Positions 1 through 11,271 of a stretch of DNA of 64,000 nt are shown here, piece after piece. Numbering within the stretch: position 1 is the stretch's first letter; every line of letters starts with the position of its first letter. The stretch is from a bacterium (GTDB lineage: Bacteria > UBA8248). The notes under the pieces are model-generated. The model saw only the letters and a program-made list of their open reading frames with translations. It had not been told where the DNA came from and ran no database searches. Made by a program: the position numbers and the translations under genes. The stretch is taken from NCBI GenBank assembly GCA_965203325.1, contig OZ241875.1:3360001-3424000 (forward strand), in the 5' to 3' direction.

Positions 1-460
1 TCAGGAGTATGACTCTGGGTCGTCGGGCCTGACCGTCACGGCGGCGATCATCCTGCGGCCTCTGCCAAGCTGTTACGTCCAAGACGAGAACTGTCCCTGG
101 CTTCAGGGTGATCACCATCGTTCGATCCGTTCCGACGCGCCATGGGACGAGCCAAGCTTGTAACTTTTCCCCAGAGAATTGCTCACTTCCGGTGGTTCCT
201 GCAAGCAGTTGACCTGGTTTCCGTCCCGGGATTCGGGGAAGTGGCTGACGGTGACGCCCTTCCAGAATTGGGTACTGCTGCGGTAGTTCCCCGCACTCAG
301 CCACGATGACGGGCGGCCCTTTTCCATCAGTCGGAGACAGCCTTGTCCGGCAGTCGGGAGCGATTTTCTCCCACATTGCCGGGGCAACTCCGGCAGCTTC
401 ACGACTGAATTCTTGGTATGACTCACAGAGCCACATGGTTGTCCGTCTCAGGATTTCCAT
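1..460 (-). CDS. Partial CDS running off the left edge; probable McrC/DUF2357-like partner of the McrB GTPase (function inferred from position only)
   Basis: Hand translation from ATG at 460 (MEILRRTTMWLCESYQEFSREAAGVAPAMWEKIAPD...RRPRVILL) stays open to base 1. It starts 3 nt after the McrB-like stop on the same strand. No nuclease motif is visible in the part present. Confidence 0.55.
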   Translation of the reverse strand, partial: MEILRRTTMWLCESYQEFSREAAGVAPAMWEKIAPDCRTRLSPTDGKGPPVIVAECGELPQQYPILEGRHRQPLPRIPGRKPGQLLAGTTGSEQFSGEKLQAWLVPWRVGTDRTMVITLKPGTVLVLDVTAWQRPQDDRRRDGQARRPRVILL

Positions 461-463
461 CCA

Positions 464-2497
464 TTAGTATGTGTAGCCCGGCCAAGTGAAGATTTGAGAA
501 GCTTGAGAGGCAGTCGCGGCGTCCTGTAACGCTTCTGCAAAATCAGGGTCGCCCAAAGTGTCTTCGCTCAGTCGCCGCAGTCCATCGACGGTTTCCTGGC
601 AGTCGCTCATTTCAGACCCAGCGAGCTTCGGAAGAAGACGCATGTTGATTTGGTCAATCATGGGAATCCGCCAGTCCTGTCCAGGGTATCGTTGGATGTA
701 AGCCTTGATGCTCTGTGCAATTCGGTAACCAAACCCTCTTCCTGCGCTCTGCATCAATTTCGCGAGTTCTTCGAGTGTTTCGTCGACTTGTTGGGCTCCT
801 GCCACGACTGTCGTTTGACGATCAGACCATTCGAGCCAACGCTTGTAGGGGAGATAGCCTGCGGCTTCCTCAACGCCGTGTTCGGGCGCAGCGCTGTGTT
901 CGCGAAGCGTGCCCGGCTCGGGTGGTGCGAAGCGGATCGAGTTTGCTCGGTCCAGAACCTTGTCGGATAGCGCTTGGGTGGTCTCATCCTCGTTCAGCGT
1001 GCCGACCCAGAGGACATTGTGCGGCACATAGAGGTGTTTTGGGCGTTCGTTCTCGGCGTAAGGGAGATCGATCGCGATCTGTGCATCCTCGCGATCTTCC
1101 CAGTCTCCGTGTCCGTTTACCCGTGGCCCTCGCATTTCAAGCCTTGAAAGAAACTCGGAGAAATAGTACTCAGTTCGTGCGAGATTCATCTCATCAAGGA
1201 GGATAATGAGCATCCTCTCGTCCCAATCTCGGTCAGGTTCGATCCCAATGTCTTGCGCAAACTTCTTGTCAAAGCGCCCAAGTGCACGCGCCCGATCAGT
1301 GGGCCGATAGCGCTCTGCGACGAAGTCGTAAAAACCGAGGATATCCTGTGGTGAGTCCCAGCCCGGTTCCACAGGTACATGCAGGAAATGGATCCCGAAG
1401 AACCGGGCGTATGCTCTCGGAAGCTGGCTCTTGCCGGTGCCGCTCAGCCCGCTCAGCACGGTCAGGGGCGAGAGGTCATTCACTTTCAACGCCGTGTGGA
1501 AGGCGCGGATAATTTGCCCTGGATACCGTAGCCCCAAATCCTTCAAGGTGATCTCAAACTCGGTGAGCAGATCGTCTTCGGTCGTTTCTGCGCGCATTTC
1601 CTTATATCCAAGCAAAGAGTCCGGAGTGATCCGGAACGCGCTCAGCTTTTCTTCACTAGAGGCGTCTGTGTCACCATCCGGCATTTCTCCTCGTCTCGCC
1701 GCGAGCTCCGTAGTGGCGTGGTTTAAGGCCTCATTGGTCTCAGCGAGGCGTTTCTGGCGTCCGGTCAACTCTTTGTTCAGGTCCTCCATCTGGTCCTTGA
1801 GTTGATTCACTTCCCCAAGAAGACGTTCATTTTGTGGTTTCAAGGTATCTGTCTGCTCTTGTTTTATTCGCTCAAGCAACTCCTGAGCCTCTTTGGTTTC
1901 GTCATTGAGACGCTCTCTCTTGCTCTCGAGCCTCCCTGCCTCATCTTCGGCCTGCGAACGCCGAGCGTCGGCTACGGCGTATTCTTTCTGAGCATCCTCG
2001 GTCGCCTGTCTCAGCTTGTCGTAGGCTTCCATCCTTTCGGCAAGCAGTTCTTTCCAGGCGCTTTCGCTTCCTGTCATCTCGGGCGGATAGGGATCGAGTG
2101 CTGCTTGAATCTCTCGAAGTCGCTGACCGGCCTCGGCTCGTCGGAGTTCAAGTTCGTCGATACGTTTCGATTCCTCTCTTTCGAACTCCTCCAGTTCTTG
2201 GCGCATCGCTTCGAGATTCTCATGATCGCGCCGAACTGCTTCCCAACGGTCTAGAGCATCTTGGGCTCGGAGCCCGTCTTTGAGGATCGCCTCCCGCTTC
2301 GCGCGCAACTCTTCAATCTCAGCTAACTCGTTGGCTCTTGCTTGTCTGAGCGCTTCAATCGATTGCTCCTCGGTTCCGCGGCTTTTCAGCCCATATAGTT
2401 GTCCTATAAGGAACATGACAACGAGCAATGCGAACATGGCTCCGAAGAGCATAAACTCGACAGCATTCCCATCGAGGCTGAGGCCGCCAACCGTCAT
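464..2497 (-). CDS. mcrB: McrB-family AAA+ GTPase with N-terminal transmembrane helix and long coiled coil
   Basis: Hydrophobic N-terminus (FMLFGAMFALLVVMFLIG), ~230 aa E/K/R/L heptad-rich region, Walker A GLSGTGKS, Walker B IILLDEMNLAR, McrB signature GTLNEDETT, and LSDKVLDRAN. Confidence 0.9.
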   Translation of the reverse strand: MTVGGLSLDGNAVEFMLFGAMFALLVVMFLIGQLYGLKSRGTEEQSIEALRQARANELAEIEELRAKREAILKDGLRAQDALDRWEAVRRDHENLEAMRQELEEFEREESKRIDELELRRAEAGQRLREIQAALDPYPPEMTGSESAWKELLAERMEAYDKLRQATEDAQKEYAVADARRSQAEDEAGRLESKRERLNDETKEAQELLERIKQEQTDTLKPQNERLLGEVNQLKDQMEDLNKELTGRQKRLAETNEALNHATTELAARRGEMPDGDTDASSEEKLSAFRITPDSLLGYKEMRAETTEDDLLTEFEITLKDLGLRYPGQIIRAFHTALKVNDLSPLTVLSGLSGTGKSQLPRAYARFFGIHFLHVPVEPGWDSPQDILGFYDFVAERYRPTDRARALGRFDKKFAQDIGIEPDRDWDERMLIILLDEMNLARTEYYFSEFLSRLEMRGPRVNGHGDWEDREDAQIAIDLPYAENERPKHLYVPHNVLWVGTLNEDETTQALSDKVLDRANSIRFAPPEPGTLREHSAAPEHGVEEAAGYLPYKRWLEWSDRQTTVVAGAQQVDETLEELAKLMQSAGRGFGYRIAQSIKAYIQRYPGQDWRIPMIDQINMRLLPKLAGSEMSDCQETVDGLRRLSEDTLGDPDFAEALQDAATASQASQIFTWPGYTY

Positions 2498-3471
2498 CGC
2501 GAGGTCTCCGTTCCTTCGTTGGTTCGTTGTGCGTCATTCAGTTCATCAATCATGGCGCGTATCCGCTGGCGGGCCTTTGCTTCCAGGCCAATGAGATCTT
2601 GGAGCCGGGCAGAAGCCGCTTCTTCTCGGGTTTTCACGGTTGTCAACTTGGCCTCCGCCCTGATCAGCTCGTCCCTGGTTCGGTCGCGTTTCTCCTGGAC
2701 CGTTGCTAGTGTAGTGCGTATGGTTTGGATCTCGCCTTGGAGGTTCGCAAGCCGTGTGGTTTGGCGCTGGTTTCCTCTCTTGAGTTCGTCCTTCTCTTCT
2801 TTCAACCGTGCGATCTCATTGCGGATTCCCTGCGCCTCCGCAGTCAATCCCTTGAGTTCTGCTCGTATCGATTCCAGCAGCCGACCTGTGCTGGCGGCAT
2901 CGGACTCGTCCTGCAACAACTTTTGCTTTTGCGCGGCGTGTGCGCCTTTGGTCTGTGCCAGATTCTGCAATACTACGCTCAACTCCTTTCGCACCTCGTC
3001 TCGGCGCTTCCGTTCCGCCTCGGATCGCTTTGACAGATCATTGATTTCATCTTTGTAACTCTTGATTGACCCGGTGAGTTGATCTCCCCTTGTTTTCAGC
3101 ATGCCTATATCCGAGTTGAGGGCTGCCACTTCTTTCGCCAGGCGGTCGCGCGCACCGCGTGTTCTTGTTTCTTCTGCTTGTAGGTTTGGCAGTTTCTTGG
3201 CGATGGTGCTGGCTCGTTCGGCTTTCATCTCTAGATCCGCGAGTTCCGCCTTCCGCTCCGCTATCTTTGCGATCAGTGAATTACGTTCTTGCCGTAAGCC
3301 CGGCAGGCGGGCGGCGATATCAGCAGCCTCTCTCCGGTTCTCGGGCAAAGTCAGAATTTCCTCTCCAATCGCCACGCACGCCAGTGCAAGTATCACCGTA
3401 ACGACCGCCAGAAGCCCGATTGTGAGTCCAACGGTGCGGCGTTGGCGCTTGGCTGTATCCGATGTTGTCAT
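2494..3471 (-). CDS. Membrane-anchored coiled-coil protein
   Basis: ATG at 3471 (MTTSDTAK) with ATGA overlaps to both neighbours. One TM segment (VGLTIGLLAVVTVILALACVAIG) is followed by ~270 aa of continuous coiled coil. Confidence 0.8.
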   Translation of the reverse strand: MTTSDTAKRQRRTVGLTIGLLAVVTVILALACVAIGEEILTLPENRREAADIAARLPGLRQERNSLIAKIAERKAELADLEMKAERASTIAKKLPNLQAEETRTRGARDRLAKEVAALNSDIGMLKTRGDQLTGSIKSYKDEINDLSKRSEAERKRRDEVRKELSVVLQNLAQTKGAHAAQKQKLLQDESDAASTGRLLESIRAELKGLTAEAQGIRNEIARLKEEKDELKRGNQRQTTRLANLQGEIQTIRTTLATVQEKRDRTRDELIRAEAKLTTVKTREEAASARLQDLIGLEAKARQRIRAMIDELNDAQRTNEGTETSR

Positions 3472-4460
3472 GCGTTCTCCTCCGTCGTGCGATCGCGACC
3501 GGCAAGCGGCACCGCTGACGCAGCTTCCTCGGCGATGTGTTTGATGCATTCCATTTCATCTCGTTCAATCTCGTCGGTCCAGAGCCGTATCGGTCGCCAG
3601 CCAAGTCGTTTAAGCACTCGATCCCGACGTTCGTCTTCAGGCCGGCGGCGGTTCGGCAGCTCTTCGTGCCAGTGGCGTCCGTCAACTTCAACGTCTAGCC
3701 TTACGGGCAGTCCGCTGGCGTTGCCGATTACGGCGAAATCAAGGAAGTAATGGGATACCGGGTGTTGCGGAATGGGATCCAGTCCCGCGGCAGTGAGCGT
3801 CTCGCCGAAGCGACGTTCGATTTTTGATCTGCGTGGGAGCGGCCTGAACAAAGGATCGTGATAGAACTGCCAGCGCTGTCGCGCCACTCGGTGGAGGTCA
3901 TCCTCGGCACTTGAGGCAGCGCAGAGTGCTGCAATGAGGTGGACTGTCAGGCCGCGATTTCTCGCTGCCTCGAGCATGCGGCGAAACGGCGGACAAGGGG
4001 CTGGACGTTCGACCCAGTCTCGTCGCGCAATGAGCAGGTCTGGACGTTCGTAGGCACTTTCGATATATGTGACCATCTCCTCAGCCGTCGTCTCGTCTGC
4101 CAGGATGATGCGAAGCTGCCCCGCCTCGCGCCTTACAATCTGGATTTCGTTCTCTGCGGTCTGCGCTGTCAGTCCCGCCTCGGTAAAAGTCCAGCCGATC
4201 ACTGGCGTGTTCGTCTGCAACAGTCGCCATCGGTTCAAGCCATTGAGGGTTAACTCCCCTCGGACGAGGGCCTTTCGGATTGTCTCAAGATGGGTTTGGC
4301 CGAATTGTCTTGGCCGATATGTTCTCAGCCTTCCTCCCAATGGGCGCCGGAGATACCGGCTATGCTGTGCTGGTCCAAGGTAAATCGGTTGGGTCACAGT
4401 CGGTGCTTCCCTTGGTGTGGTTTCACCCCACCTGTAGAGTGTTGCATGCCGTAGCGACAA
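3468..4460 (-). CDS. Protein with C-terminal Vsr/DUF559 (MTES_1575-like) PD-(D/E)xK endonuclease domain and unknown N-terminal domain
   Basis: C-terminal YFLDFAV...LDVEVDGRHWH...DERRDRVLKRLGWRPIRLW is the DUF559/Vsr-like pattern. TTG start is uncertain. Confidence 0.8.
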   Translation of the reverse strand: MSLRHATLYRWGETTPREAPTVTQPIYLGPAQHSRYLRRPLGGRLRTYRPRQFGQTHLETIRKALVRGELTLNGLNRWRLLQTNTPVIGWTFTEAGLTAQTAENEIQIVRREAGQLRIILADETTAEEMVTYIESAYERPDLLIARRDWVERPAPCPPFRRMLEAARNRGLTVHLIAALCAASSAEDDLHRVARQRWQFYHDPLFRPLPRRSKIERRFGETLTAAGLDPIPQHPVSHYFLDFAVIGNASGLPVRLDVEVDGRHWHEELPNRRRPEDERRDRVLKRLGWRPIRLWTDEIERDEMECIKHIAEEAASAVPLAGRDRTTEENA

Positions 4461-4792
4461 TGGTGCAGTTCGTGAAGCTTTGTTGGTCCCTGTGAAAGGA
4501 AAGCTTGTCCGCCTCGGCTACTGCCGGTTATAAGTCTTGCAGCACTTATTGCAATTCATTTTCCGTGTTCCAGGGTCGCCGGTGAACGGTATTTCCGTTA
4601 CCCGCACACTCAAGGCTCCTGTCGGGACAGGGTTCCTTGCGCTTCCTCATGCCCGTTGCACACAATTGCCGGATTCATCCTTATTCTACAAAATTCGTCT
4701 GTCTTTTGCGTATTTTTTGTCTTTGGTTTCATGCATTTATAGCACATTTATATATTTTTCGCCTTGGCATCCGGTCACGGGAGGCAGGTGAT

Positions 4793-4990
4793 ATGAAGGA
4801 AAGCAGCGAGGCGGGACACATCTCGCGGCCGTGTGCGGCGCTTGCGCTGATCACCGCGAGCCCCGACCCAGAGACCGTGCTACGTGAGGTGGTGGAAGGC
4901 ACCCGCGCGCTCACTAGCGCGGGCGACGGCGTGATCCCCACGGTGGACGAATCGGGAGGGCCGCGGTAGTTCGTCATCGAATACCTCGAC
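4793..4990 (+). pseudogene. Truncated N-terminal fragment of a GAF-domain sensor/regulator
   Basis: RBS GGGAGG, then MKESSEAGHISRPCAALALITASPDPETVLREVVEGTRALTSAGDGVIPTVDESGGPR*FV. This resembles the GAF start 'SLDLETVLREVVESARALTGARYGVI.TVDE.G.P..FV', with an in-frame TAG at 4967-4969 and no continuation. Confidence 0.6.
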
Positions 4991-5252
4991 AGGGGTGCTT
5001 CGCACTGCGCGGGAGTTGTAACTTACCCGCTTTCGGCTTGTTTACGGATTGCGGAAGGCGAATTCTGAAAGAGACCTCCATATACCAATACTGACAATGC
5101 TTTCAACAAACTACAAAGATTCCCCGTCCGCTGAACCCCCCCCACCCCCTGAAAACACGCGGGAGAGCGGGATGCGCGCCCCCTCCCGCCGGGCGTCCGG
5201 GCGTCAATACGGGCAGCGCCAGGCAGCCGTGCAATGCGGGAGACCGCGCCGG

Positions 5253-6183: not shown

Positions 6184-9100
6184 TCAGAACCGCAGGCTGA
6201 GGTCGAGCCCCAGTTCGTGCTCGGGCTCGGACACGGCGCTCTCGCGCCGCTCGCCCGCCAGTTCCACGCGAAGGTCCGCGCCCCGCGCCTCGTACCGCGC
6301 ACCGAGCCTGAGGCGCCGGCTCTCCCCGCCGGCGAGGCCGGCTTCCGCGAACGGCGTCAGCACCCCGCCCGACGCCGTCCCGAACCCGTAGCCGACCTGC
6401 GCGTCGAGCGCGCCGTCGTCGCCCGAAGCCGCCGGGTTCGGCATCTCCTCCGCCCACAGCGCCCGCGCGCCGCCCGTTCCCGCGCCCCAGCGGGGCGCGA
6501 GCGCGAAGAACAGGCCGCGGCCGCCGGCGCCCGGACCGGCGCGCACCGTCAGGCTCACGCCCCGCTCCTCCGCACCCTCCTCGCTGTGCGCCGCGAGCCA
6601 GCGCCCGCGCATCTCCACCGATATCCCGGGCGCCGCGTAGCGCACGCCGCCGGCGAGCTCGAACCCGCTGCCCTCGAGCCCGTCGCCGCCGTCGTGGCGC
6701 ACCGCCGCCTCCAGGAAGGGCTCCAGGCTGCTCTCGCCCGCCAGCGCGAAGCGCCGCGAGGCCTCGAGCCCCGCCCGCAGCCGCCAGCTGTCGGCGGAGA
6801 GCCCGTGGATCGCGTCCGGGCCGTCATCGGTCTCCATCTGCGTGACGCTCGCGTCGGCGCGCACCGCCAGCGCCGCGCCGGCGAGTCCGCCGAGCGCACG
6901 CCTGACCCCCACCGACGCCATCCGCATCGTGAGGTCGCCGGTCTCCGCGTCCGCGTCCCCGGGCTCATGGCGCGCCTCGCCCCAGCCCGCGCCCGCCACC
7001 GCGCGCAGCTCCAGGCCGTCCGCGAGCGTCCAGCGCCCGTAGGGATAGACCGCCGTCAGCGTCGTCTCAAGCCGGCCCCGGCCGGTGAGCGCGCCCCCGG
7101 CGAAGGAATAATCCGCCTCGCCCGTCCCGCGGCTCACCGCGAGGCCCGCCACCCACGGGTCCGAGCGCCCGTCCACGCCCAGCCAGCCCGTGCGCAGCTT
7201 CCCGTCGTAGCGGAGCCCCGTCTCGCCGCCTCCCGCGAACGTCCCGAGATCCCCCCGGCCCCACACCGCCCACTGCGGCCCCGCCGGGCCGGCGTCCTCC
7301 GCCGAGGCGAGACGCACCGAGAAGGCGCTCGCGCCGAACAGGTCGGACGCCGCAAGCGCCCGGCTCTCCGTGCAGCCCAAAGCCGGCACAAGGCCGGCGG
7401 CGGCGTACCGCTCCGGCGCGCAATCGCGCAGCGCGTAGGCCGCGGCGGAACCATCGAGCGACACCGCCTGCCCGGCCAGCGTCACGCCGCTCGCGCCGAT
7501 GTCGGCGAACCTGCCCCCGATGTTGTCCAGCGCGCTCGCCGTCGCCCTTCTCGCCACCGCCGCCAGCGCGCGCCTCACAGCGCCCTCAACCGCCGCGCGC
7601 CGCGGGTCCGCCGCCACCGCGACCACGAAGGTGAGCGCCGCCTCGTCGCCGTCCGCGTCCCGCACCGTCCAGGTGTAGCGCCGCGACCCCTGCGACCGCG
7701 ACGGCGTTCCGGTCAGCCTCCGCGTGGCCCCGTCTAAGCTCAGCCCCGGGGGCGGGGAAGGCGCCAGGCGGTAGGTCAGCGTCCCGTCGCCGCCCGTCGC
7801 CGCCGGAAGCGCCAGCGCCGCGATCGCCGTGCCCGCCGTCCATGACTGGTCCGCGACCGCCGCGTCGCCGAACGACGGCATCAGGTTCTCCTCCACCTCG
7901 ACCGTGAAGGTGAGCGCCGCTTCGTCCCCGTCCGCGTCCCGTACCGTCCAGGTGTAGCGCACCGGCCCCTGCGGGGTGTCCGGCGTGCCGCTCAGCGTGC
8001 GCGCGCCCAGGTCCAGCGCCAGGCCCGAAGGCGGCTCGGGCGTCAGGCGGTAGGTCAGCGTCCCGTCGCCGCCCCTCGCCGCCGGAAGCGTCAGCGCCGT
8101 GATCGCCGTGTTCTGCTTGTACGACTGCGCGGCGACCGCCGCGGACCCGAAGCTCGGCGTCAGGTCCGGCGCGCCGCCACCGCCTCCGCCCCCGCCTACA
8201 TTGCCGCCACCTCCGCCTACATTGCCGCCCCCGCCGCCGCGGTCGTCGTCCCGGATCGTAATCTGCACAGAACGCGGGCTGCCCGCCGTCACCTCAGACG
8301 GCAGCGTCCCCAGCGCCACCGTGAACGTCTCGTCGTCGGTGTCGCTGTCCTGCGCCGTGGTGATGGTCCCCGTTCCGTTGGTCGCGCCCGAGGCGATCGT
8401 GATGCCCGTCAGCGTCCCGTGGTCCTCGGGCTCGGCCGTGCCGTCGGTGATCGTCAGCGGTATCGTCACGCTGTTCGACAGCGCCGCCGACAGCGTCGCC
8501 GTCACGGTCACGCTCGATCCCTCCGCCACCGTCGGCGAGGCCGACAGCGTCACCGTGGGCGTGGTCGTGTCCAGCGTCGCCACGGCCCCCTCGGTCGTGC
8601 CCGTCGCGTGCGCCCAGAAGCCCTTGCCGCTCGCGTTCTCCGCGCGCACCCGCACCCGGTAGGTCGTGCCGTCGTCGAGGCCCGTGATCGCCTGCGAGGC
8701 CGCCGTGCCGCTGCGGCTCACCGCCACCCATTCCGTCGCCACGTTCGTGCCCACGGCCGCGCCGGCGGCGACCGTGTTCGATGCGGTATAGTGCACGTCG
8801 TAGCCCGTCAGCGTCCCCGAGGGCGCCGTCCAGGCGAGGTCCAGCCTGCCGTCGCCGGGCGTCACCGTCAGGCCCGCCGGCGCGGCCGGCGCGTTCTGCG
8901 CATGCCGCGTGACGGTGACCGTCCAGGTCGTGTTGGCCCCCTGCCCCAGCGTCGACGACGCCACCACCTCGATGGCGTTCGCGCCGGCGTCCAGCGCGAT
9001 CGCCCCGCTCGTGTCGCCGCTTGTCAGCGACACCGCGGCGGCGCCCCGCTTGCCCACCGACAGCACGTACCCCCCCAGCACGCCGACCGTCGGCCTCGCC

Positions 9101-11271
9101 TTCACGTGCGTCACCGCGTGCGGCACCGCCGCCGTGTAGTCCGTCACGCGCGGCGAGAAGCCCGGGCTCAGCGCCAGCGCGTCGTAGCTCGCATTCTCGC
9201 CCTGCGCCTTGGTGAGCGCCAGGCCCGTCAGCAGCAGGCCCTCCGGCGTGCCCGCGCCCTCCACCCAGGGGCTCACCAGCCTTCCGCCGGCGTTGCTCGC
9301 TCGCACCCGCACCCGGTAGCGCTGCAGGTTCCGGCCCCTGACCGTGTACGAGGTCGCCGTGGCATCGTTGTGGGGCCCGCTCGCGCGCTGGAGCGCCACC
9401 CAGCCCACGGCCTCGTCGACACCGCGCGCGCGGGCGTCCGCCGCGACGGCGGTCGAGGTGGTGTAGTCCACCCAGTAGGCCGTCACCGTCCCCACCGGCG
9501 GCGCCGTCCACGACAGGTCCAGCCTCCCGTCGCCCGGCGTCACCGTCAGGCCGGTCGGCGCCGCGGGCGCCAGCGCGGCCTCCACCGGCGCCGTCCAGAC
9601 GCCCGCGGACATGCCGTCGCGCTTCACCGAGCGGACCCGCACCAGGTAGGTCTCGCCGACGGCCAGGCCCGTGAAGGTGTGGCTCGTGCCCGTCACGTCC
9701 GTGTCGGTGTTCGGCCAGGCCGCGGCCGACTTCAGCTTGCTCTGCACCTCGTAGCGCACCACGTCCACGCCCGCCGGCGCCTTCCAGCGCGCCGTCAGCT
9801 CGCGGTCTCCCGGCCTCAGCGTCAGGCCCGACGGGACGTTCGAGCTCGGCGTGCCGGTGGCGAAGACGTAAGCGCCCTCCGGGCCCGCCGTGCGCAGGCG
9901 CACCCGGTACGCCCTGCCGTTGGTCAGGCCGGTAATCGTGTACGAGGTGTCGGTGTCGTCGACATCAGCAGACACGGCCACCCAGTGCGTGGCCGCGTTC
10001 GAGCCCGAGCTCGCCGCGGCGTCGGCGACCGCGCCGGCGCCCGTCCTCGGCGCCGAGGTGTAGTCCAGCTCGTAGCCCACGAAATCCCCGTCGGGCCGGG
10101 TCCAGGTTACGAGGAGCTGCGCATTGCCCGGCGTGACCGTCAGGTCGGGAAGGCCGAGCGCCTCCGGCGTGCCGGCGCCGAACGCCCAGGCGCCGTCGCC
10201 CCCGGCGCTCGTCGCCCGCACCCGCACCCGGTGGGCGGACCCGCTCGGCAATCTGCCAATCCTGTGCGAGGTCCTCGCGCCGTGACCGTTGCGGGACACC
10301 GCCACCCAGCCAGTCGCGCCGTTGGTGCCGGCCTGCACCGCCGCGTCGTTCGCGACCGTGTCCACGGTCGCCGACGTGTAGTGCACGTCGTAGCCCGTCA
10401 CCGTCCCCGGCGGCGCCGTCCACGACACGTCCAGCCGCGTCGGGCCCGGCGTGACGCGCAGACCCGTCGGCGCGGCCAGCGGCACCGCCGCGCCGTTGAC
10501 GCGGATTTTCATCGACCGACCACTAAATTCGGCGGTCCAGGTCGACGAAGCGGTCGGCGCGGCGGATCCGTTTCGAAAGTAGTTACCTGCGTTGGCGATG
10601 CTCCAGCCGGCGGCCGCTCCGCTGTCTTCCGCATCAGCGGCGTTATGCGTGAGCCTAAAGGTGGTGAGAGTCTCGGCAGTGGTGTAAACGACCACGTGGT
10701 ATTCGGTGCTCGCCGCGAGCGTGGTGCCTGCCGGCGCCGAAAAGGTGGAGGCCCTTGCGCCCGTCGGGAAGCTCGAGGGGACTGTCAGGTCCGCGAGCTT
10801 CGACCCGGGCTTGCCGCTGCTGGATGACCAAAGCTCCGCCTCGATCGTCGCAATCTGCTGCGCGGTCAGGGCGGCGGTAGTGACGTTCGTACGTATCTCG
10901 ATGCTTTCGAGGGTGTAGCCGCCGCCGTTGGCGCCTGTCGTGAAGCCTTGAGCGCGGGCGAATACTCTGGCCGTTTGCGGGTTATCTGCCCCCGTCTGCC
11001 CGATGTTGCTCACGAGCACGTCGGCGGAGGCCGGCGCGGCGGCGAACGGGGAGAGCAAGAACGCGCCGAGCAGCAGCGCGAGGACGGGAAGGAGGAGGGA
11101 GAGGCGGCGGGCGCGGGGGCGCCCGGAGCGCGGCTCAGGCTTGCGCCTGGAACCTGGCCGGGAATGCGGGACGCCGTTCGGGCCGCTCGTGCCGCCCTTT
11201 TCTTCGGATGACGGATGACGGACCATGCCGCCCCCGGTTGCAAGCCTCTCCATGCGATGTCTCATTTTCAT
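6184..11271 (-). CDS. Autotransporter adhesin: extended signal peptide, choice-of-anchor R-like domain, ~5 FN3 repeats, cadherin-like beta-sandwich, Calx-beta, Gly linker, 2 putative Ig (He_PIG) repeats, C-terminal beta-barrel
   Basis: Signal ending AAAPASA/DVLVSN; repeated 'APTGL.VTPG...L.VSWTAP....GYDV.Y'; FSPRVTDYTAAV; VAEGSSVTVT...DDETFTV; 'PSFG.AAV..Q' x2; barrel starting WAVWGRGD and ending in Phe. Start codon uncertain. Confidence 0.9.
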   Translation of the reverse strand: MKMRHRMERLATGGGMVRHPSSEEKGGTSGPNGVPHSRPGSRRKPEPRSGRPRARRLSLLLPVLALLLGAFLLSPFAAAPASADVLVSNIGQTGADNPQTARVFARAQGFTTGANGGGYTLESIEIRTNVTTAALTAQQIATIEAELWSSSSGKPGSKLADLTVPSSFPTGARASTFSAPAGTTLAASTEYHVVVYTTAETLTTFRLTHNAADAEDSGAAAGWSIANAGNYFRNGSAAPTASSTWTAEFSGRSMKIRVNGAAVPLAAPTGLRVTPGPTRLDVSWTAPPGTVTGYDVHYTSATVDTVANDAAVQAGTNGATGWVAVSRNGHGARTSHRIGRLPSGSAHRVRVRATSAGGDGAWAFGAGTPEALGLPDLTVTPGNAQLLVTWTRPDGDFVGYELDYTSAPRTGAGAVADAAASSGSNAATHWVAVSADVDDTDTSYTITGLTNGRAYRVRLRTAGPEGAYVFATGTPSSNVPSGLTLRPGDRELTARWKAPAGVDVVRYEVQSKLKSAAAWPNTDTDVTGTSHTFTGLAVGETYLVRVRSVKRDGMSAGVWTAPVEAALAPAAPTGLTVTPGDGRLDLSWTAPPVGTVTAYWVDYTTSTAVAADARARGVDEAVGWVALQRASGPHNDATATSYTVRGRNLQRYRVRVRASNAGGRLVSPWVEGAGTPEGLLLTGLALTKAQGENASYDALALSPGFSPRVTDYTAAVPHAVTHVKARPTVGVLGGYVLSVGKRGAAAVSLTSGDTSGAIALDAGANAIEVVASSTLGQGANTTWTVTVTRHAQNAPAAPAGLTVTPGDGRLDLAWTAPSGTLTGYDVHYTASNTVAAGAAVGTNVATEWVAVSRSGTAASQAITGLDDGTTYRVRVRAENASGKGFWAHATGTTEGAVATLDTTTPTVTLSASPTVAEGSSVTVTATLSAALSNSVTIPLTITDGTAEPEDHGTLTGITIASGATNGTGTITTAQDSDTDDETFTVALGTLPSEVTAGSPRSVQITIRDDDRGGGGGNVGGGGGNVGGGGGGGGAPDLTPSFGSAAVAAQSYKQNTAITALTLPAARGGDGTLTYRLTPEPPSGLALDLGARTLSGTPDTPQGPVRYTWTVRDADGDEAALTFTVEVEENLMPSFGDAAVADQSWTAGTAIAALALPAATGGDGTLTYRLAPSPPPGLSLDGATRRLTGTPSRSQGSRRYTWTVRDADGDEAALTFVVAVAADPRRAAVEGAVRRALAAVARRATASALDNIGGRFADIGASGVTLAGQAVSLDGSAAAYALRDCAPERYAAAGLVPALGCTESRALAASDLFGASAFSVRLASAEDAGPAGPQWAVWGRGDLGTFAGGGETGLRYDGKLRTGWLGVDGRSDPWVAGLAVSRGTGEADYSFAGGALTGRGRLETTLTAVYPYGRWTLADGLELRAVAGAGWGEARHEPGDADAETGDLTMRMASVGVRRALGGLAGAALAVRADASVTQMETDDGPDAIHGLSADSWRLRAGLEASRRFALAGESSLEPFLEAAVRHDGGDGLEGSGFELAGGVRYAAPGISVEMRGRWLAAHSEEGAEERGVSLTVRAGPGAGGRGLFFALAPRWGAGTGGARALWAEEMPNPAASGDDGALDAQVGYGFGTASGGVLTPFAEAGLAGGESRRLRLGARYEARGADLRVELAGERRESAVSEPEHELGLDLSLRF
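7615..8160 (-). repeat. Two tandem near-identical Ig-domain coding repeats (~280 bp each) in the autotransporter
   Basis: GGCGGTAGGTCAGCGTCCCGTCGCCGCCC..GCCGCCGGAAGCG.CAGCGCCG.GATCGCCGTG occurs at ~7767 and ~8046; GAAGGTGAGCGCCGC.TCGTC at ~7627 and ~7906. Confidence 0.85.
8172..8240 (-). repeat. 21-bp tandem repeat encoding a GGGGGNV x2 plus poly-Gly linker
   Basis: CCGCCTACATTGCCGCC occurs twice at 21-nt spacing. Confidence 0.8.

Follow-up and report, generated by a model that had tools for sequence, protein, structure and literature searches.

McrBC-derived defence systems whose GTPases carry an NxD(E) motif, and not NxxD, make up the branch that contains the CoCoNuTs (Bell et al., PMC11090510; this and the following descriptions come from text passages of that study). 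In the Type III-B CoCoNuTs of this branch, which are mostly alphaproteobacterial, CnuH, a superfamily 1 (SF1) helicase resembling Upf1, is joined directly to a nuclease of Vsr type and equipped with an N-terminal Sul7s-like winged helix-turn-helix (wHTH) domain, a fusion referred to below as CnuHE. CnuA is a separate protein made of coiled coil only, CnuB is a coiled-coil NxD GTPase, CnuC combines an immunoglobulin-like N-terminal domain with DUF2357 and an inactivated PD-DxK nuclease, and CnuD is a separate Hsp70-like protein with HEAT repeats, from whose Hsp70-like character the same authors argue that Type III-B systems target RNA. The sister group, CoCoPALM, has McrB GTPases fused to an FtsB-like transmembrane (TM) helix and coiled coil (PMC11090510). 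Here, we analyze an operon at the left edge of a 64,000-nucleotide stretch of bacterial DNA (assembly GCA_965203325.1, contig OZ241875.1; G000:C1:3360001-3424000), called the window throughout, together with 15 kb read to the left of it (L003), and compare it with these systems.

The data indicate that this locus is quite probably a derived, helicase-less form of a Type III-B CoCoNuT, that is, five co-transcribed genes constituting an McrBC-derived, Type IV-restriction-like defence. As a helicase-less offshoot of Type III-B, it is a variant of that type and not a new kind; the reading of the initial annotation, made from the window alone, as an anti-phage system of its own gives way to a component-by-component correspondence with Type III-B. 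All five genes lie on the minus strand, three of them whole within the window, whereas gene 4 crosses its left edge and gene 5 lies outside. [quoted passage not shown] The junctions, read directly, comprise ATGA overlaps between genes 1 and 2 (3468-3471) and between genes 2 and 3 (2494-2497), and a three-nucleotide gap between genes 3 and 4 (TAA-tgg-ATG, gap at 461-463); gene 5 begins one base past the stop codon of gene 4. The co-orientation and tight coupling noted in the initial annotation are thus borne out. Its count of four genes holds for the open reading frames (ORFs) in 1-4460 and rises to five once the DNA to the left is read, a step that, as that annotation had anticipated, typed its partial gene as the DUF2357 protein and brought in the Hsp70-like one.

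The Vsr half of the Type III-B fusion is present in gene 1 (309-330 residues) and the helicase half is not. Residues 217-312 match the Pfam families MTES_1575 (53.3 bits against a cut-off of 38.2) and DUF559 (34.6 against 20.6 bits), and no Pfam family matches before residue 217. An AlphaFold2 model built on 50 homologues (mean predicted local distance difference test score, pLDDT, 84; predicted template-modelling score 0.79) places a Vsr/DUF559 endonuclease domain at residues ~212-317, with 3hrl (Z 12.2), I-Bth0305I (Z 11.4) and Vsr itself (1cw0, Z 10.3) among its neighbours in the VIA structural comparison; Foldseek with the same model returned nothing at E <=0.001. The 50 homologues all carry LDF...RLDxEVDGxxWH unchanged, a motif that supplies residues D241, D256, E258, D260 and H265 in the 330-residue numbering. 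No SF1 helicase gene occurs in the operon or in the ~590 bp upstream of gene 1, which contain no credible gene and beyond which host DNA follows. The reading of an McrBC-derived operon of the CoCoNuT class with a free-standing Vsr/DUF559 nuclease and no upstream SF1 helicase has therefore held up.

What precedes the nuclease domain is an alpha/beta region (residues ~57-205) that may be a degenerate remnant of the helicase's RecA2 domain. It is modelled as a beta-alpha-beta fold (residues ~36-180), and its VIA neighbours include the RecA2 domain of Upf1 (2xzl 636-844, Z 7.3), Ighmbp2 and Sen1 (both Z 7.1), SETX and ZNFX1. Furthermore, hhalign places residues 60-317 of the short-family profile in collinear register with the final 290 residues of CnuHE (probability 99.8%, E 2.4e-29), an alignment that spans the C-terminal RecA-like domain and Vsr and whose score is carried by the Vsr part, and a BLASTP match to the CnuHE encoded in the same genome reaches back to residue 115. 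Two observations limit the strength of this reading: structural Z values of 7-8 fall in a range that VIA calls common, and residues 1-205 alone align by hhalign to the same place in CnuHE without significance (E 0.07). The helicase motifs are not kept in the hhalign alignment of the N-terminal domain. On balance, the domain is probably a degenerate RecA2 remnant, a view that has moderate support.

Genes 2 and 3 supply the coiled-coil and GTPase components. Gene 2 sits between the nuclease gene and cnuB, as its counterparts do in related loci, and matches coiled-coil families only, all below cut-off, with DivIC/FtsB at 25.0 bits against 28.9 (residues 51-113); both its start and its N-terminal motifs recur in 10 homologues. 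In gene 3, a coiled coil (residues ~40-290) is followed by the GTPase domain, which contains the Walker A motif GLSGTGKS (residues 350-357; window 1427-1450), the Walker B motif LLDEMN (residues 433-438; window 1184-1201) and NEDETT (residues 502-507; window 977-994), of which residues 502-505 form the NxD(E) motif. Walker A, D435-E436 and N502/D504/E505 are invariant in 18 CnuB sequences. The signature asparagine had been assigned to the NxxD type; the motif reads N-E-D, that is NxD, which also is the one that defines the CoCoNuT branch. Against solved structures, myosin and SMC coiled coils dominated the matches of the full-length CnuB profile, and the GTPase domain was used alone instead: its only significant matches are structures of McrB from E. 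coli (6ut6, 7vsr and 6hz4_A, the last being the best at E 0.0014), with both Walker motifs and the signature asparagine in register. Over residues 157-676, gene 3 is 36% identical (tblastn) to TBW38399.1, a Type III-B CnuB.

Both proteins are predicted to be anchored in the membrane, as the initial annotation proposed, by helices called from hydropathy (19-residue Kyte-Doolittle mean of at least 1.6 within the first 110 residues). In CnuA the helix spans residues 14-36 (window 3364-3432; maximum 2.83 at residue 18) and in CnuB residues 15-37 (window 2387-2455; maximum 2.57 at residue 13); this helix and the coiled coil take the N-terminal position of the modified-base reader, whose absence from the GTPase had been recognized correctly. 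Such a predicted anchor is found in 68 of 71 full-length CnuB and 61 of 64 CnuA candidates, including those of the Type III-B representative of Bell et al. (L047). Because of these counts, the anchors are a trait of the family and not a peculiarity of this locus, and they do not set it apart from its helicase-bearing relatives. The charge pattern around the helices, which is a sequence rule and not a measurement, suggests opposite orientations. In CnuB, lysine and arginine are commoner after than before the helix in 64 of 68 proteins (means 2.35 versus 0.19), which predicts an N-out/C-in topology, as a cytoplasmic GTPase requires. For CnuA, 35 of 61 proteins have more of them before the helix, 9 have more after it and 17 have the same number on both sides, with a net charge of about +2.2 before and -0.9 after, so that its topology leans towards N-in/C-out, as in FtsB. 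A co-fold of CnuA with CnuB residues 1-300, run without controls, scored 0.00 against a mark of 0.32, which speaks neither for nor against a pairing of the two. Across the family, CnuA ranges from 280 to 1067 residues and contains internal repeats; in a Paracoccaceae metagenome-assembled genome (MAG), CnuA (L004 6085-8004) carries in tandem a ~90-residue unit that is single in the CnuA of the window. Given this range and the tandem unit, the CnuA coiled coil appears to grow by internal duplication.

The remaining two genes complete the Type III-B set. Gene 4 matches DUF2357, the N-terminal domain of McrC (29.2 bits, cut-off 23.3), with no other match at E <=0.01; its nearest ESM-Atlas clusters are DUF2357 proteins, and its profile found 0 matches to solved structures at E <=1. 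Among 22 homologues no aspartate, glutamate or lysine is conserved beyond residue 370, and the PD-(D/E)xK catalytic motif is for this reason regarded as absent. A DUF2357/PD-(D/E)xK protein had been expected at this position, and the DUF2357 part is present; of the "one or two" nucleases initially proposed, only Vsr is predicted, because the McrC homologue lacks the conserved catalytic residues. Gene 5 has neither a Pfam nor a PADLOC match, and its AlphaFold2 model (pLDDT 89.8) resembles the nucleotide- and substrate-binding domains of Hsp70 over residues 1-510: Foldseek gave DnaK at 3.9e-11 among 223 matches at E <=0.001, and VIA gave Ssz1 (Z 21.6), Sse1 (Z 19.4; residues 2-510, 419 aligned) and BiP (Z 18.5). 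Residues 533-837 form a helical-repeat tail (Z 12-13, a range that VIA warns can be generic).

Comparison with related loci anchors the assignment. A scan with the CnuB alignment, restricted to one genome per species, matched at least 599 stretches; 533 of them held up on confirmation, and the 80 best loci were retained. One of these, L047 from Siculibacillus lacustris, encodes proteins identical to TBW38399.1, TBW38397.1 and TBW38400.1, which supplement 1 of PMC11090510 lists as Type III-B CnuB, CnuHE and CnuC. Since the family thus contains Bell et al.'s own accessions, it is Type III-B; the window's CnuB, CnuC and CnuD match L047 in tblastn searches, and both CnuBs fall in one tree. With the five window proteins as queries, tblastn recovered the order Vsr protein, coiled-coil protein, CnuB, CnuC, CnuD recurrently across the best 80 loci, in line with the expectation that gene order would be conserved elsewhere. 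The family loci are mostly from Pseudomonadota, chiefly Alphaproteobacteria. Departures from this order occur in L073 (13756-17145; Kiritimatiellota, Pontiella) and L081 (8298-11951; Clostridia), where the helicase-Vsr gene lies downstream of cnuD.

The length of the Vsr protein divides these loci. Among the 78 with a CnuB ORF it measures at least 1000 residues in 46 and 300-324 residues in 9; another 5 have an intermediate length (probable frameshifts or contig ends), and 18 have no Vsr protein, with a contig end cutting off 11 of these. Of the long proteins, the 11 that were tested all contain AAA_11/AAA_12 together with DUF559, whereas all 8 short ones tested match DUF559/MTES_1575 only and lack AAA_11/AAA_12. 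A quick maximum-likelihood tree was built from the C-terminal 400 residues of CnuB (71 rows, rooted at the midpoint with no other CoCoNuT types as outgroup); in it, the short-Vsr loci form one clade, with a Shimodaira-Hasegawa-like approximate likelihood ratio test (SH-aLRT) value of 99 for seven rows and of 98 for eight when the long-branched L019 is included; L079, a further "short" row, is a contig-edge artefact. The helicase-bearing loci L012 and L013 are sister to this clade in the tree as drawn from its midpoint, and the short form is kept as a clade in several orders. Two contigs of a single Rhodobacteraceae MAG (L010 and L011) carry two separate helicase-less copies. Seven loci (L029, L057, L068, L071, L072, L076 and L077) have no Vsr gene on the expected side despite enough upstream DNA; the cyanobacterial ones may be the Type III-C of PMC11090510, and the others come from Succinatimonas, Desulfovibrionaceae, Planctomycetota and Opitutales.

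Several points weigh against reading the locus as a helicase-less Type III-B CoCoNuT with a defence role. By the definition of Bell et al., a locus without the helicase is not a full member of Type III-B; these authors may already have counted helicase-less loci under that type. The membrane anchors are predicted from hydropathy only. A scan for the sigma-70 consensus found 0 promoter sites at the locus, and a terminator scan found a single terminator-like site, on the opposite strand, and none for the operon. Finally, a literature search found no experimental work on CoCoNuTs, for which reason the word defence, and every step of the mechanism considered below, including assembly, target and the role of the membrane, is inferred; gene content, homology, folds, conserved motifs, gene order and the clade are what the sequences themselves show.

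Is the short system autonomous? The same genome contains a complete canonical Type III-B operon at ~0.60 Mb (G000:C1:601252-612721; L084 4252-15721) encoding CnuHE, CnuA, CnuB, CnuC and CnuD, in which the CnuHE, found by a genome search with canonical CnuHE, has 1096 residues and the CnuB carries GTMNEDEST. The operon adjoins a gene for an OLD-family protein with AAA_15/AAA_21 and TOPRIM domains (L084 17211-19193). The short system might accordingly borrow the helicase of this canonical system and act as an accessory or alternative effector module. Two observations make this improbable. The two systems are distant from each other, with CnuB 33% and CnuC 32% identical, a divergence that renders mixed complexes less likely; a 64-bp stretch of the second cnuB is 81% identical to window 1149-1212. 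Furthermore, none of five other genomes with a short system (0/5) contains a full-length CnuHE; searches there returned only the short Vsr proteins and unrelated helicase ORFs of 1145-1799 residues that matched over part of the query. Given this distance and the five other genomes, the short system is probably autonomous.

Alternatively, loss of the helicase might have killed the system, leaving a decaying remnant with pseudogenes in the making. The motor of the effector arm is indeed gone, the N-terminal domain of gene 1 lacks helicase motifs, and the island lies in DNA of foreign GC content beside a possible integrase fragment. Decay is nevertheless quite improbable, as the five frames are intact and translationally coupled and the short form has persisted as a clade in several orders. 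In a collection of 5.8 billion proteins, the short Vsr protein forms 65 clusters at 90% identity, all of 207-365 residues, a number close to the ~70 clusters of CnuB that are at least 62% identical to the GTPase domain of the window. Mean column identity across the 50 homologues of gene 1 is 48%, with many invariant residues in the N-terminal domain as well, and the protein is modelled with a pLDDT of 84. The neighborhoods differ among all six short-clade loci compared, and the five-gene cassette moves as a unit between them.

That the locus is instead a CoCoPALM system is highly improbable: the CnuB has a TM helix followed by a coiled coil, and the sole FtsB/DivIC match, below cut-off, is on CnuA and not on CnuB, but no signal-peptidase-family protein occurs in the five genes or in 44 neighboring ORFs, the McrC homologue gives no coiled-coil family match, in contrast to the many for genes 2 and 3 (family matches serving here as a proxy for coiled-coil prediction), and Vsr, CnuA and Hsp70-like CnuD are the set of Type III-B, in a family that includes Bell et al.'s own accessions. 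The 44 ORFs, of which six short-clade loci supply 29 and four other related loci 15, contain no SF1 helicase either; their only helicase match, an SNF2 protein, is encoded on the opposite strand in L076, which is not a short-clade locus.

With the helicase-less Type III-B reading retained, a mechanism can be proposed by analogy and from the interpretation of Bell et al. In E. coli McrBC, a hexameric ring of the McrB GTPase is stimulated by McrC, and enzymes of the Vsr family are known as DNA endonucleases. By comparison, CnuB would assemble a GTP-dependent ring at the inner membrane, and CnuC would plug into this ring and stimulate GTP hydrolysis. CnuD and the coiled coils might recognize or hold foreign nucleic acid or nucleoprotein, and the free Vsr protein would cut the target, being the proposed cutter because it is the only predicted active nuclease in the operon. 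The coiled-coil pair may detect a disturbed envelope or incoming DNA, as the initial annotation proposed. A bolder version holds that Type III-B CoCoNuTs, the short form most clearly, are trans-membrane defence machines, in which the CnuA and CnuB anchors of opposite topology pair and couple an envelope event to a GTPase-gated Vsr. The coiled coil and GTPase of CnuB would then be cytoplasmic and the FtsB-like coiled coil of CnuA periplasmic, and an event such as the injection of phage DNA could trigger Vsr to act at the site of entry. We consider this version unlikely, if worth stating; the length spread and repeats of CnuA are hard to square with a protein that fits the periplasm. If true, the helicase-less clade would show that SF1 translocation is dispensable at the point of entry.

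These results bear on how CoCoNuTs might be approached in future research. The CoCoNuT branch of Type IV restriction is large and known from prediction only, and a naturally reduced system could become its experimental model. Specifically, the short operon would be simpler to clone and dissect than the canonical one, since it lacks the ~1050-residue helicase protein and has a single small predicted nuclease, and it bears directly on the question whether the helicase is needed. In addition, the genome with both a canonical and a short form offers a natural pair for comparison. The conserved anchors of CnuA and CnuB would, furthermore, put an McrBC-type motor at the inner membrane, shifting where, and on what substrate, its activity should be sought. 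The family-wide anchor is an addition to the description of Type III-B: in the text passages of PMC11090510, "transmembrane" occurs six times, never in those on Type III-B, and "membrane" as the start of a word does not occur.

The operon lies in a lower-GC island. The GC content of the operon is 53-60%, compared with 69-80% in the host DNA from about position 5000, and the lower-GC stretch extends leftward to about L003 10000. The non-coding stretch upstream of gene 1 (4461..5050, minus strand) presumably holds the promoter, which given the empty sigma-70 scan is inferred only, along with the right border of the island; an A+T-rich patch lies within it around 4690-4790. Direct repeats of the att type, sought on the flanks of the island, turned up only as chance-like pairs of 17-20 nucleotides, and a search around it found no tRNA genes. 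Just downstream of cnuD, a 71-residue ORF fragment (L003 10710-10925, minus strand) has no Pfam match; its start may resemble the N-terminus of a tyrosine integrase, and the fragment may mark the integration end of the island. Further left lies another low-GC island (37-55% GC; L003 1-8500, G000:C1:3345001-3353500) with a 743-residue protein that has two GHKL ATPase domains (HATPase_c_3 and HATPase_c) and weak PADLOC "REase_II" matches, an adjoining ORF of at least 394 residues and several other ORFs without a family; this may be another defence cluster. On the other side, window 6184-11271 (minus strand) encodes a 1695-residue protein of surface type, in which five fn3 stretches accompany He_PIG and cadherin-like domains, and across the island a 608-residue protein (L003 7140-8966, minus strand) has a very similar N-terminal leader of ~70 residues (common to both: RLATGGG...SSEE...LLLP.LALLLG).

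How, then, does the locus compare with known systems? The defence proteins Hhe, PDC-S37 and ProA (PADLOC, NCBIfam) share with gene 1 the C-terminal MTES_1575/DUF559 domain and nothing else, and, unlike the operon of the window, are single giant helicase-nuclease proteins. In ShdA of Shield, too, a TM helix and extended coiled coil occur together with a nuclease function, as judged from its description in passages of PMC11090510 and not from a sequence comparison, but all in one protein, with an RmuC-like nuclease and no McrB/McrC module. The PADLOC model PDC-M26A matches CnuB proteins over its first 434 positions only, that of the window at 5.9e-36 (positions 160-433 of 724) and canonical Type III-B ones at 1e-37 to 4e-45; as no other component matches, PADLOC would not call this system. 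A literature search found no paper mentioning PDC-M26 and no CoCoPALM follow-up.

The classical McrBC systems of E. coli (6hz4, 6ut6, 7vsr) share the AAA+ GTPase, its Walker A and B motifs, the asparagine signature and a DUF2357 partner. They differ in having NxxD where the window has NxD, an N-terminal DNA-reader domain where the window has a TM helix and coiled coil, and an active PD-(D/E)xK in McrC, whose residues are not conserved in the window; three extra proteins are present here. A classical McrBC that has merely lost its reader domain was considered and rejected in view of the NxD motif, the TM and coiled-coil N-terminus and the lack of conserved catalytic residues in gene 4. In CoCoPALM, as at this locus, a TM helix and coiled coil come before the McrB-type NxD GTPase; unlike this locus, CoCoPALM has a partner of the signal-peptidase family and a coiled coil on the McrC homologue, where the window has Vsr, CnuA and CnuD instead. 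The closest system is Type III-B. Its canonical CnuHE has ~1050 residues, whereas gene 1 lacks the SF1 Upf1-like helicase core: neither the RecA1 domain and its Walker A/B motifs nor the helical insertion, OB fold or N-terminal wHTH is left, while ~150 residues of possible RecA2 remnant precede Vsr. The CnuC of the window is also shorter at its C-terminal end. Gene order, the Vsr effector, CnuA, an NxD CnuB, a DUF2357 CnuC devoid of catalytic residues, and CnuD are shared.

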